64,000 bases of DNA from Escherichia coli (GTDB lineage Bacteria; Pseudomonadota; Gammaproteobacteria; Enterobacterales; Enterobacteriaceae). The stretch's first letter is position 1; every line of letters begins with the position of its first letter. Of this stretch, positions 1 through 6,000 are shown one piece after another. The stretch lies in assembly GCF_024502345.1 (NCBI RefSeq), contig NZ_JALDNN010000002.1; one strand, given 5' to 3'. Made by a program: the position numbers.

Positions 1-3000
1 CTATGAGCAGATGTACCTGCTAAATCAGCAGCTGATCTGCAACGCTGACCAGTTCAAACATGCCGTTATCACAGTTGGCGGTCAGGCTGTGCAATACTGG
101 ATATCCTATTATCATGCACAATATGGCGACAGATTGCCTGATGAGCGTCTCACCACTTCTGTTGACTGCGACTACAGCGCCCGGAAAGATGATATTGCGG
201 CTATAGCAAAAACGCTCAACGTTAAGACGTGGGAGAACAAAGACGGCCAGCCCCCATCCCTTGGACAGTTTATGCTTATCGATCAGGACACACACGATAT
301 CAAACGGGATGATGGACGCTTATTTGCCGTACCGGATGCGCCTGACGAGCCAAATGTGGTGGATATTATCGACCGACCCGGAGGCTTTGACCGTTCTGAT
401 TTTCTGGGGGAAAAGCTTTACCTGTATACCGCCCCGTTTTATGTAGAAGCAACCGGCCCCGGTATGCCTGAAATGAATGAAAAGGTAAGGGTGTTGAACC
501 CTGTCGCCTGTATGCGCTCGCGCTTTAGCAATCTGATTGCCTTGCGCCGTGATGCTGAAATTGAAATTGCGCGTATTAACGCGCTCAAGATCCCGTGTTA
601 TTTCTTTCTCATCGAACAGTTTGATGAACAGCCGTTCAAAGTTGCACGAGGAATCTTTATGGATTTGTGGTGGCTCGCGAATGACGAAAGCTGTCTGCGC
701 CATCAGGCCTTCTGGCATAGCTGGCAGGGGCCGCTTCTTGAAGGGCAACAAAGTAACAACATCACTCTGATTGATGTGTTGGAAGGCGTACATGCATACC
801 TGGAAGGGCATCTTGATGACTTTGAAATACCGGAAGCCTTTGTCACCAAAGAATTACCGCTAAAGCTCGCACAGCTGCGTGAACGCTGGGAGCGTTACGT
901 GGTACTCAATGCTGAATGGGCAGCAAGAGGGCGCAGGGGATTTGAACGTAATCGCCGTGATGATTAGGGAAGGTGCGAATAAGCAGGTCATGTCTTCCCA
1001 AGCTGACTCGTTGATTAAAATTTCGCGGATCTGGGCCGATTTTTTTCCCGCAAACACATCGAATCAGCCTATTTAGGCTATTTTTTCCACCATTTCTGGC
1101 GTTATTTCCGGTTTTTACTGAGATCTCTCCCACTGACGTATCATTTGGTCCACCCGAAACAGGTTGGCCAGGGTGAATAACATCGCCAGTTGGTTATCGT
1201 TTTTCAGCAGCCCCTTGTATCTGGCTTTCACGAAGCCGAACTGCCACTTGATGATGCGAAACGGGTGCTCCACCCTGGCACGGATGCTGGCTTTCATGTA
1301 TTCGATGTTGATGGCCGTTTTGTTCTTGCGCGGATGCTGCTTCAAGGTTTTTACCTTGCCGGGACGCTCGGCGATCAGCCAGTCCACATCCACCTCGGCC
1401 AGCTACTCGCGCTGTAGCGCTCCTTGGTAGCCGGCATCGGCTGAGACAAATTGCTCCTCTCCATGAAGCAGATTACCCAGCTGATTGAGGTCATGCTCGT
1501 TGGCCGCGGTGGTGACCAGGCTGTGGGTCAGGCCACTCTTGGCATCGACACCAATGTGGGCCTTCATGCCAAAGTGCCACTGATTGCCTTTCTTGGTCTG
1601 ATGCATCTCCGGATCGCGTTGCTGCTCTTTGTTCTTGGTAGAGCTGGGTGCCTCAATGATGGTGGCATCCACCAAAGTGCCTTGGGTCATAATGACGCCT
1701 GCTTCGGCCAGCCAGCGATTGATGGTCTTGAACAATTGACGGGCCAGTTGATGCTGCTCGAGCAGGTGGCGGAAATTCATGATGGTGGTGCGATCCGGCA
1801 GGGCGCTATCCAGGGATAATCGGGCAAACAGGCGCATGGAGGCGATTTCGTACAGGGCATCTTCCATGGCACCGTCGCTCAGGTTGTACCAATGCTGCAT
1901 GCAGTGAATACGCAGCATGGTCTCCAGCGGATAGGGCCGTCGGCCATTGCCCGCCTTGGGATAAAACGGCTCGATGACAGCGGTCATATTCTGCCATGGC
2001 AGAATCTGCTCCATGCGGGAGAGGAAAATCTCTTTTCGGGTCTGACGGCGCTTAGTGCTGAATTCACTATCGGCGAAGGTGAGTTGATGGCTCATGATGT
2101 CCCTCTGGGATGCGCTCCGGATGAATATGATGATCTCATATCAGGAACTTGTTCGCACCTTCCTTAGGATTTTCGCCACTGAATAAATTATAATAAATTG
2201 ATTTTATAAGATATTCGTCATGGGCTATATGACCAGTACGAGTTGCATGCTCTAATGTTTCAGATGCCAGTATATGTGCGGCTTCAGCAAACATCCCAGG
2301 CCAACCCTTACTCAGCATAGACAGTCCTTTAAGGACTCTTATCTGAATCTCCCTCATACTCGCACCATCACGTGCAACAGGTAAGAAAAAGTCTTCCAGT
2401 AGGTCTTTGATCTGAAGTGGCGCAACATGTACTGAAGGATATATCACTTCAGTTTCATCTATTTTATTCTGCGCGTAAGCGGAGAGTATTCGAACACCTC
2501 TGCCAATGACATCAATCGCAGTACCGGGATCGTTTACTGCGGGCGAAAGGGCCCTGCAGGCTATTTCGGCCATGACGCTGAGACAGAATCGGGGATCCTG
2601 AGCAAATGAACGCACATCCGAGACAATGATCGTTTCAAGTAAATCGGTACAGATTGATGACTCCTGACCAGAACTCAGGTACAAAACTGGCATCGATGGA
2701 TGTATGAAACTGCCTGGCTGCGCCACAAGATATACATGACGAGGATCATTGCTCAGCAGACTGCCGAGCTTGACCATGTCAATATATTCAACATAGCCAA
2801 TTTTCTCCGGATATACGGCAACAGTTCCTTTTGGTTGTTCATTGTTCTCAAGCCATGGATATCCGCCAAGACATGGACTTTTTGCTCTCGCAATAAATGT
2901 CTCGATCGCCGCCTGTTCTACTTTTGCTGTTGTCTCACCTACCCTGCCCAGAGAGGTCAAATGCTGTATCCAGCGAAGCAATGTGATGATTATTAAGGCA

Positions 3001-6000
3001 ATGACAACCAGTGTTACAATGAATAAAATGACTCTACCCCTTTCTCCGTAGGCTCCCATATTGAGGGCAATAATCCCTACCAGGCTGAAGAGAAAAGAAC
3101 CGATAAAAGTGGCCAGTACATTTTGTGTGGTTACGTCTTCTACAACTAAACGCGTGGCTCTGGGCGTCACATTAGTAGTGGCTGAACCGTAAGCGGTGAC
3201 CATGATACTCAGTGAAAATGTGGTCACCGCCAGCATACTCGATGCCAGTATGTTCAGAATATTATCAACTGCTTCCGCACCAACCTTCACTGATACTGAC
3301 TCTGGGATCATTGATCTAAAAAGAATAGATAAAAGGGCCGTTATTATTGCTACCATTGCAAATAACGTTGCCCTGAACCATAGTTTTTTAAGTGTCTGCC
3401 TGAGAATCCATTGCCAGCGTAAAATCATTCAGCATATCCTTGTATTAAGTTCGGGAAAATAAATGCCGCCCGGCAGGACGGCATTTTTGTATTAACGAAC
3501 GAGGTGCAGGAAGTGCAGGTGTTTTTCGTACTGGTCCAGTATGTCATTAATCAGCTGTTCCTGATTCCAGCCCATCACATCATAGTTTTGACCGCCTTCT
3601 TTCAGATAGACCTCAGCGCGATAATATCGATGTTGCTCAACCTGCTGCTCGTCATTGTCCATTGCAGCCATGGCGAAAGCCGGTGAGTTATAGCCACGAA
3701 GTCTCACTTCATAAATAAAGTTCAGCTCATTGCCCAAATCGACTTCAAGCCGAATTCGTTCGTCATCAGTATCACTTATATGGCTTATCGTTCCCTGTTT
3801 ATTCAGTTCTTCCTGAACCAGCGTCATGGCGGGCTGGATAACGTCGCCCATAAAGCGTTTCACAAGAGAGCGCTTTGGCAGATAAGCGATATTGCGCAAG
3901 CGTCTCTGCCATGGAATCGGGTTACGCGCTGCAGTCGGAGCAATAGTCGCCATGCTCAGGCTTTCACGCTTGGTCAAATCCCGACGCAGGGCTTTTAATA
4001 ATCCGTATATGGATATCAGTAAAATCACTGAGAAAGGTAATGCGCTCGCTATTGTCACGGTTTGCAGCGCGCTCAGTCCCCCCGCAATCAGCAGTGCGAT
4101 TGCCACAATCCCTATGAGCGAGGCCCAGAAAATTCGCTGCCATACAGGCGTGTTAGCGACGCCACCCGATGCCAGCGTATCAACAACCATTGCCCCGGAG
4201 TCAGCCGAGGTGACAAAGAAGACAATGACCATCGCCATTGCAATAAATGACAGCACGGAAGAAAACGGGAAATGCTCCAGGAAATTAAACAGGGCCAGCG
4301 CGACATCCTGCTGAACGGTATTGGCGAGATCAGCCGCCCCCTGGTGCATAATGAGATAGATTGCGCTGTTACCAAACACCGTCATCCACATGAGCGTGAA
4401 GCCGGCGGGAACAAACAGCACGCCGGTGACAAACTCGCGAATGGTTCGACCGCGCGAGACTCTTGCGATGAACATCCCCACAAACGGCGACCATGAAAGC
4501 CACCATCCCCAGTACAGTAATGTCCAGCCCCCCAGCCAGTTGCTCGACTTAGGTTCATACGCATAAAGGTTAAAAGTTTTACTCACCAGTTCAGAAAGAT
4601 AACCGCCCGTATTTTCCACAAATGACTTCAGCAGAAGCACGGTTGGTCCCAGACACAGGACCAGCGCCAGCAGCAGCACTGCCAGGCCCAGGTTGAGCTC
4701 AGACAGTATACGTATTCCCTTGTCCAGGCCGGACACCACCGAAATCGTCGCTAAACCAGTGATGACAACGATTAGAATCACCTGCACCGTTTCATTAATA
4801 GGCACCCCGAAAAGATGATTCAAACCAGCATTCACCTGCAAAACACCGTACCCCAGCGATGTCGCAACGCCAAAGACGGTGCCAATAACGGCGAAAATAT
4901 CAACCGCATGGCCTACAGGTCCGTATATGCGCTCGCCAATAATGGGATAAAGTGCGGAACGCAGCGTTAAAGGCAGACCGTGACGGTAACTGAAAAAGGC
5001 CAGGATCAGTGCCACAATGGCATAGATTGCCCATGCGTGCAGGCCCCAGTGGAAGAACGTCAGGCGCATTGCTTCCTTCGCTGCCGCAACGGTCTCTGGA
5101 GTGCCGACAGGAGGTGAAAGATAATGCATCACAGGTTCAGCAACGCCAAAGAACATCAGGCCGATCCCCATCCCTGCCGAGAAAAGCATCGCAAACCAGG
5201 AGTGATAGCTAAAATCAGGCTGCGCATGGTCCGGACCCAGTTTGATATCACCGTAGCGTGAGAGTCCCAGGAACGAGACACTCAGTAGAATCAGGGCCAC
5301 TGCAAGGATGTAGAACCAGCTGGCATTCGTGAAGATTTGTTGCTGAAGTAGTTTAAAATTTTTGTCGGCGACATCCGGGAATACAGCGGCAAAGGCGACA
5401 AGAAGGAAAATTAACAAAGCAGATGTAAAGAATACCGCTTTGTTAATCTGGCTTTTAGACTTCTTTTGGATTGTATCATTTTCACTCATAATCATTTATT
5501 CCATTAATTAAAATCCGCACTGTATAGAGGGTACTACATCTCAAAGATTAGCAAACTTCAACTTACGATGCGGCGTCAATCGGAATGCAGAGTGCAAGAG
5601 TGGCCATACAGATATCCTGTTGATAGTCTGCCAGCCGTCTTCTGGAGCATTTGATTTGCATAAATTGCATCAGATCTGGGGATTCACTTTGATTAGAGCA
5701 ATATTGAGAATGACTTACTAACGTCTGATGTTGCGTAAAGCGGGCTTTAAGGATGGTCGCAATGTCAGAGGTAAGGACAGACGTTCAGGATGCAAATAAT
5801 CAGTGCCGGTTCGTCGCTGATTTTCCTTCAGGCTGACTTGTCCAAAACGAGTAACAATCGCCGGTGATGCTGCCAACTTACTGATTTAGTGTATGATGGT
5901 GTTTTTGAGGTGCTCCAGTGGCTTCTGTTTCTATCAGCTGTCCCTCCTGTTCAGCTACTGACGGGGTGGTGCGTAACGGCAAAAGCACTGCCGGACATCA

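Follow-up and report, generated by a model that had tools for sequence, protein, structure and literature searches.

A probable joint of two DNA segments that differ in origin: an ISKpn26-type element on an mcr-10 plasmid from Escherichia coli

We analyzed one end of a 64-kb stretch of plasmid DNA from Escherichia coli (contig NZ_JALDNN010000002.1), hereafter the window, on which all positions are counted. An open reading frame (ORF) listing and direct reading place a plus-strand ORF at 11-967, an insertion sequence (IS) at 968-2163, and two minus-strand ORFs at 2136-3428 and 3492-5495. The plus-strand ORF is the 3' part (967 nt, 1-967) of a gene that we call ORF330, which encodes 330 amino acids (aa) with a nucleotidyltransferase (NTase) fold and appears in the window as a 318-aa frame with its TAG stop at 965-967. 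The IS is an ISKpn26-type member of the IS5 family, the first of the minus-strand ORFs encodes a DUF2254 membrane protein, and the second is betT. A preliminary description of the locus had read it as captured chromosomal DNA in which an IS5 insertion separates the DUF2254 gene from its last 20 or so codons, these codons lying on the far side of the element and overlapping the end of the 318-aa ORF by about 60 bp. The comparisons presented here lead us to a different view, to which we assign a probability of about 0.9: the IS at 968-2163 joins two segments that differ in origin, rather than interrupting a single continuous locus by simple insertion.

The element itself (1196 bp, minus strand) has inverted repeats at 968-983 and 2148-2163, with GGAAGGTGCGAATAAG at one end and its imperfect inverse, CTTGTTCGCACCTTCC, at the other; compared as 16-bp termini, GGAAGGTGCGAATAAG and GGAAGGTGCGAACAAG match at 15 of 16 positions. 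Its identity was judged against copies that RefSeq labels as the IS5-like element ISKpn26 family, and 2-8 of its 1196 positions differ from these. The transposase frame (1115-2095, minus strand, 326 codons) is a pseudogene, in which codon 231 (window 1403-1405) is an in-frame TAG in place of the GAG of other copies. In our Pfam and NCBIfam profile scans of the ORFs, the DDE_Tnp_1 (PF01609) and DUF772 (PF05598) matches of this transposase are spread over two ORFs and a single intact DDE_Tnp_1 ORF is lacking, which makes this copy a degenerate member of its family. Given the nonsense codon, the element probably cannot move on its own. The TAG codon recurs in the IS copies of L001 and L006 (L numbers are our handles for comparison sequences) and is absent from those of L004, L005, and L011; by accession, NZ_CP063226.1 carries it, as does NZ_CP058168.1 in its DUF2254-linked copy; the near-identical copy in NZ_CP063226.1 is annotated without a transposase coding sequence. 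The tetramer TTAG stands on both sides of the element, at 964-967, where it overlaps the ORF330 stop, and at 2164-2167, and the preliminary description was correct in placing an IS5-family element with these flanks across the 3' end of the DUF2254 gene.

The DUF2254 gene in the window is a hybrid of 430 aa (2136-3428, minus strand; WP_023304011.1). Its match to Pfam PF10011 (E=4.3e-91, 305.9 bits against a gathering threshold of 28.8) extends over residues 15-369 and over positions 3-366 of the 368-position profile and, the domain being intact, the protein has probably kept its function. Its residues 1-421 (2166-3428) are native, and the last nine (KEGANKFLI) together with the stop are supplied by the end of the IS. 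When the IS and one TTAG are deleted on paper, the DUF2254 frame becomes a 440-aa ORF (...ENP-NHHGDYVQIPCALLLPIQH) that takes in 18 further codons, ends at 906, and overlaps the ORF at 11-967 by 62 bp. The arithmetic behind the proposed overlap thus holds; the extra codons, however, are not a native tail. By our estimate, 18 open codons have a chance of about 0.4, which is (61/64)^18 under equal codon usage, and for this reason the open frame is unsurprising. The tail NHHGDYVQIPCALLLPIQH occurs in none of the DUF2254 relatives whose sequences were read, and the listed full-length relatives have about 405-448 aa, mostly 413-435.

Native alleles show where the gene ends. A 99%-identical protein, P0001 (a cluster of 650 sequences), has 425 aa and ends ...ENPNKKP; P0002 is a second native 425-aa allele that also ends NKKP. 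The chromosomal proteins of Enterobacter asburiae (88% aa identity) and Enterobacter hormaechei (82%), each of 425 aa, end NKKP and NKRP, respectively. The 425-aa NKKP allele implies that the IS removed four codons, not about 20, and the DNA of these four native codons is found nowhere in the 64 kb. The same boundary is seen at the nucleotide level in the IS-free Logan contig L007, which encodes P0001 and is 99.87% identical to the window over 3,725 bp (window 5888-2164). The match breaks off precisely at the CTAA/TTAG target, such that the TTAG on the right of the IS is the original target in the DUF2254 gene. Past this point L007 reads AAT AAA AAA CCA TAG (NKKP and stop) and continues into unrelated DNA, contrary to the earlier supposition that the far side of the IS carries the rest of the gene. 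The downstream DNA of L007 has no true match in the window; only 30 nt at the contig end match, and these fall on four IS26-internal repeat sites. The native end of the DUF2254 gene together with its downstream DNA is present in at least 42 plasmid records, and on the IncHI2 plasmid pSSE-ATCC-43845 the native gene is a 1278-nt coding sequence (WP_000625672.1).

The other flank has a native context of its own. ORF330 begins outside the window: its true ATG, at window position -25, precedes the first in-window ATG by 36 nt. Near the N-terminus, residues P8, E11, and Q12 hardly vary. We found 80 relatives, from 98% down to 36% identity and of about 290-345 aa where full length, on plasmid-size contigs and on chromosomes of Dickeya, Pectobacterium, Providencia, and Sodalis. 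Homologs down to 61% identity keep both the C-terminus RRGFERNRRDD and the position of the stop, which argues that the stretch supposed to be overlapped is constrained in the plus-strand frame. ORF330 matches 1,099 plasmid records, mostly from Klebsiella (964 at 95-99% identity), and this answers the doubt, raised at the outset, that the 318-aa ORF might have no conserved homologs. The gene is carried by about 1,100 IncF-type plasmid records, pKpQIL among them, and by some Enterobacterales chromosomes. The pKpQIL copy, annotated as hypothetical protein WP_001145103.1 with 330 aa, follows Tn4401 and precedes DUF2913, ProQ/FinO, and the IncFII repA. The window and pKpQIL are 98.1% identical through 967, and the two alleles differ by 10 synonymous and 8 non-synonymous changes, a count that is uninformative alone. 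The TTAG at the stop is present in pKpQIL as well and is followed there by unrelated DNA, CCTCCTTTGGGCTG... (CCTCCTTTGGGC..., the native flank being written TTAGCCTCCTTTGGGC where it would abut the IS), not by DUF2254; this native downstream DNA is absent from the whole window. Judged by these comparisons, ORF330 is evidently a real gene and, in this context, belongs to a pKpQIL-type IncF plasmid backbone.

If the two flanks had once been contiguous, the junction restored on paper should be found elsewhere in one piece. This junction reads ...ATCGCCGTGATGATTAG followed directly by GATTTTCGCCACTG, or ...CGCCGTGATGATTAGGATTTTCGCCACTG... in contiguous form. An 800-nt query across it, run in distant mode at a coverage threshold of at least 80%, was matched by none of the 72,556 records of the plasmid collection PLSDB, the best matches beginning at the target site, and the exact restored 29-mer was present in none of 100,044 representative genomes (GTDB, exact-match k-mer queries). 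Each half of the present junction, in turn, occurs with other partners. The half that joins the IS to DUF2254 is constant and has at least four different left partners, which end ...TTGTTAA in L004 (Klebsiella quasipneumoniae), ...GTATTTAA in L005 (an E. hormaechei KPC plasmid), ...GATGTTAG in L006 (E. hormaechei), and ...GATGATTAG in the window and 12-13 other records. The half that joins ORF330 to the IS has at least two right partners; in L011 (Klebsiella pneumoniae MGH83) the IS is followed by TTAGGTTCGTTACC..., from a site that is uninterrupted in the window at 14306-14309. On this evidence the DUF2254 gene and ORF330 are both real, do not overlap, and are united only through the IS, and the 18-codon continuation is the antisense strand of ORF330, open by chance. 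The choice that had been posed between a true overlap and a spurious ORF falls away, since both genes are real and have different native neighbors; it is this difference between the native neighbors of the two flanks, a test that the preliminary description did not foresee, that defeats the overlap hypothesis.

The matching tetramers require a separate explanation, since TTAG is present on both sides of the IS and yet, as the pKpQIL and L007 comparisons show, the flanks derive from different loci. In all the IS5-like copies seen here the flanking tetramers are TTAG, TTAA, or CTAA, except in L006 (TTTT, with no YTAR). With so narrow a YTAR target preference a chance match is often to be expected, and the TTAG/TTAG pair is only a weak sign of a single insertion; we attribute the identical flanks to this preference rather than to one duplication event. 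The similarity to the left of the IS extends further in one case, the 8-nt CCGTGATG standing directly before (A)TTAG and the IS both in the window (949-967) and in L006 (4002-4019). The L006 flank was considered as a diverged remnant of ORF330, but tblastn gave no match below E=0.2, and the similarity was treated as chance; the shared CCGTGATG reflects either chance or a target-context preference beyond 4 bp.

The joint has also given rise to an ORF of its own. A 75-aa junction ORF (906-1133, minus strand) starts within the IS and reads antisense into the 3' end of ORF330, its frame and stop being those of the supposed DUF2254 tail. RefSeq lists it, in two records at least, as the hypothetical protein WP_306292279.1; it is probably spurious, an annotation by-product of the joint. 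Elsewhere, on p11A14071_B_KPC (L005:3386-4180), a 264-aa RefSeq 'hypothetical protein' has its 5' end at the ISKpn26 end and runs into the flanking DNA, and this too is probably a junction artifact; the anti-phage gene ppl lies just past it.

The arrangement arose in two steps. ISKpn26 first inserted at the TTAG four codons before the stop of the 425-aa DUF2254 gene, creating the 430-aa hybrid that is found on many Enterobacterales plasmids; this step the comparisons show. They also show the outcome of the second, in which the DNA beyond the IS was replaced, such that the IS now abuts the ORF330 stop of a pKpQIL-type IncF backbone. The replacement most likely took place through homologous recombination with another ISKpn26 that lay at the TTAG over that stop. 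We favor recombination by the host over transposition by the element itself because the nonsense codon is common to the copies of the window, L001, and L006, and we favor recombination further because the two half-junctions circulate independently and the window holds multiple IS5-like copies. Several observations weigh against this account. Among the best 5,000 PLSDB records listed for each parent-insertion query, which are mostly IS matches and in which a full-length match would rank first, we found neither the native DUF2254 tail joined to the IS (CTATGGTTTTTTATTAG followed by GGAAGGTGCGAATAAG) nor the IS joined to the native flank of ORF330 (CTTGTTCGCACCTTCC followed by TTAGCCTCCTTTGGGC). 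Because neither parental simple insertion was found, the two-parent recombination is inferred rather than observed. The single-nucleotide polymorphisms across the IS copies are mosaic and fit no single crossover; position 1039, for example, is C in the window and A in three other DUF2254-linked copies that have different left partners. The reciprocal product is absent from the window, and matching TTAG flanks would be expected equally from a simple insertion.

Among the alternatives, the most probable is that the left flank was swapped by intramolecular transposition, an adjacent deletion or inversion in which transposase directed the IS against the TTAG of the ORF330 stop on the same plasmid. 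Such an event predicts a new left flank ending in YTAR and an unchanged right flank, as is seen, and it explains why no parent with ORF330, the IS, and the native flank was recovered; left flanks in other plasmids also end TTAA or TTAG. We nonetheless consider it unlikely, if well worth bearing in mind, since the nonsense transposase is shared with the L006 copy, which has a different left flank, so that transposase would have to be supplied in trans, and since the L011 arrangement, ORF330 and the IS with a right flank other than DUF2254, needs a further event in any case. It is considerably less probable that betT and the DUF2254 gene moved within an ISKpn26-bounded composite transposon into the TTAG at the end of ORF330, the left TTAG then being half of a target duplication. 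The window does contain three full and two partial IS5-like copies, and ISKpn26 recurs in published mcr-10 contexts, having been reported repeatedly beside that gene (PMC7067168, PMC9431528), but the TTAG plus CCTCCTTTGGGC expected beyond the distal IS is absent both from the window and from the records of the junction search. Last comes the model of one IS5 insertion that truly duplicated TTAG and split a native DUF2254/318-aa gene pair overlapping by about 60 bp. It would fit the TTAG on either side and a DUF2254 frame that meets no stop for 18 codons across the restored junction, yet is hardly credible when IS-free alleles end NKKP after four codons and run into different DNA, the native downstream DNA of ORF330 on pKpQIL is different again, and the restored junction is in no plasmid or representative-genome record while its halves have other partners.

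The remainder of the right-hand segment supports a chromosomal ancestry for part of the locus. The betT gene (3492-5495, minus strand) encodes a 667-aa protein whose profile matches (Pfam BCCT, PF02028, E=5e-198, 658.8 bits; NCBIfam BetT, NF007399, 756.2 bits against a cut-off of 695) identify it as a BetT-type BCCT transporter with choline/betaine as the predicted substrate. It is co-directional with the DUF2254 gene and lies 63 nt upstream of it. Over 3.3 kb, the DNA of the pair shares 89% identity with an E. asburiae chromosome. The order there is resolvase, betT, DUF2254, convergent DUF2971, purB, DUF489, and a tRNA-methyltransferase-family gene, and the pair (L008:5178-9278) has a prophage tail-fibre/invertase region on one side and purB on the other. 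The two genes are adjacent, co-directional, and about 65 nt apart both there and in Leclercia adecarboxylata (L015:2938-6284), whose chromosomal pair has other neighbors than that of E. asburiae. This conserved pairing in differing surroundings suggests that betT and DUF2254 may form a functional two-gene unit; the more distant DUF2254 relatives in Pantoea and Alloalcanivorax stand without betT. In the representative genomes the native 27-mer of the DUF2254 3' end was found only in two 4-kb contigs (Serratia and Kluyvera), and none of these genomes offered a chromosomal donor of the pair at 99% identity or above. The pair plausibly derives from an Enterobacter-like chromosome. The view of the region as captured chromosomal DNA therefore stands for betT-DUF2254, at 89% identity to E. 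asburiae and with a counterpart in Leclercia, but not for the 318-aa ORF, which is pKpQIL-type IncF backbone. A tail-to-tail overlap does occur within the DUF2254 family, at a locus other than that of the window: in a Pantoea ananatis-type contig (L016:5001-7015), the 3' ends of a 440-aa DUF2254 gene and a convergent metallophosphatase gene overlap by 25 bp.

The plasmid around the joint is itself a mosaic. Over positions 1-6000, 13 plasmid records from Enterobacter, Citrobacter, and E. coli show 99.8-100% identity, in agreement with the earlier placement of the region on a plasmid, and positions 6001-27833 are 99.9% identical to mcr-10.1 plasmids. The mcr-10 gene (20098-21717, 539 aa) scores 1314 bits against the NCBIfam MCR-10 cut-off of 1250 and is adjoined by a XerC-type tyrosine recombinase gene (18655-19731), in keeping with the mcr-10 surroundings described in print (PMC7067168, PMC9431528); these matches place the window on an mcr-10.1 colistin-resistance plasmid. 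Two further full IS5-like elements (29091-30286 and 56353-57546) and two partial ones (28775-28887 and 60322-60929) are 93.6-99% identical to the copy at 968-2163. IS26 is present in four copies (23996-24821, 27013-27833, 31231-32050, and 61849-62668), and transposases of the IS110 family (6851-7873 and 14481-15557) and the IS630 family (16943-17974) are encoded as well. The abundance of IS copies provides ample substrate for rearrangement. An Rfam scan of 1-8000 returned nothing; within 1-6200, promoter-like sites fell below the shuffled expectation and terminator-like sites were modestly above it, neither being informative.

ORF330 can also be considered apart from its position at the joint, and this reading of the gene has no bearing on the gene-overlap hypothesis, which is excluded. 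The NTase fold carries G[GS] and D.D catalytic motifs. When ORF330 and 29 relatives (30 members) were scanned, none had a significant Pfam or NCBIfam match, and there was no AbiEii match (PF08843/DUF1814) at E values up to 1. Upstream of the gene only a 51-aa ORF is annotated (WP_000074143.1), and no recognizable AbiEi-type antitoxin is found there. Tentatively, and at rather long odds, we suggest that ORF330 may found an uncharacterized NTase-fold family that lacks a Pfam or NCBIfam model, and that it could be a MenT- or AbiEii-like toxin or a defense enzyme with an unconventional partner, of which the 51-aa ORF would be an example.

These observations carry a practical caution. The 4-bp 'target duplication' that borders an IS5-type element is no proof that the flanks were once contiguous, and when such an element is deleted on paper, the reconstruction can yield gene tails and overlaps that have no counterpart in nature. 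Two annotations in RefSeq already stem from this joint, those of the 430-aa hybrid DUF2254 protein and of the 75-aa junction ORF. The ORF330-ISKpn26-DUF2254 joint with its nonsense transposase can also be used to trace the lineage of one set of mcr-10/Enterobacter plasmids. The joint is an ordinary IS-mediated joint of a mosaic plasmid, already present and annotated in public records, and is not biologically surprising.

The components of the locus can be compared with known systems. Relative to the NTase-fold toxins (MenT/TglT, AbiEii, and DUF1814), ORF330 differs in having no profile match and in having a long helical C-terminal half. The window copy of the IS shares with ISKpn26 (IS5 family, IS5 group) the length of 1196 bp, the 16-bp inverted repeats, the 326-codon DDE_Tnp_1 frame, and the 4-bp YTAR flanks, and differs from it in the GAG-to-TAG change at codon 231 and in flanks that come from two target sites. 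The betT-DUF2254 pair has the gene order and spacing of the chromosomal pairs in Enterobacter and Leclercia, and a resolvase-type gene stands upstream on the E. asburiae chromosome and on some plasmids alike, but the DUF2254 protein of the window has an IS-encoded C-terminus. Set beside the IS-mediated plasmid mosaicism that is known from IS26 and other elements, through homologous recombination or intramolecular transposition, the locus shows the same pattern, in which one half-junction is kept and the partner beyond the IS varies between plasmids. Nothing in it is unusual by that standard, and its sole peculiarity is that two unrelated flanks share the 4-bp target and in this way mimic a simple insertion.

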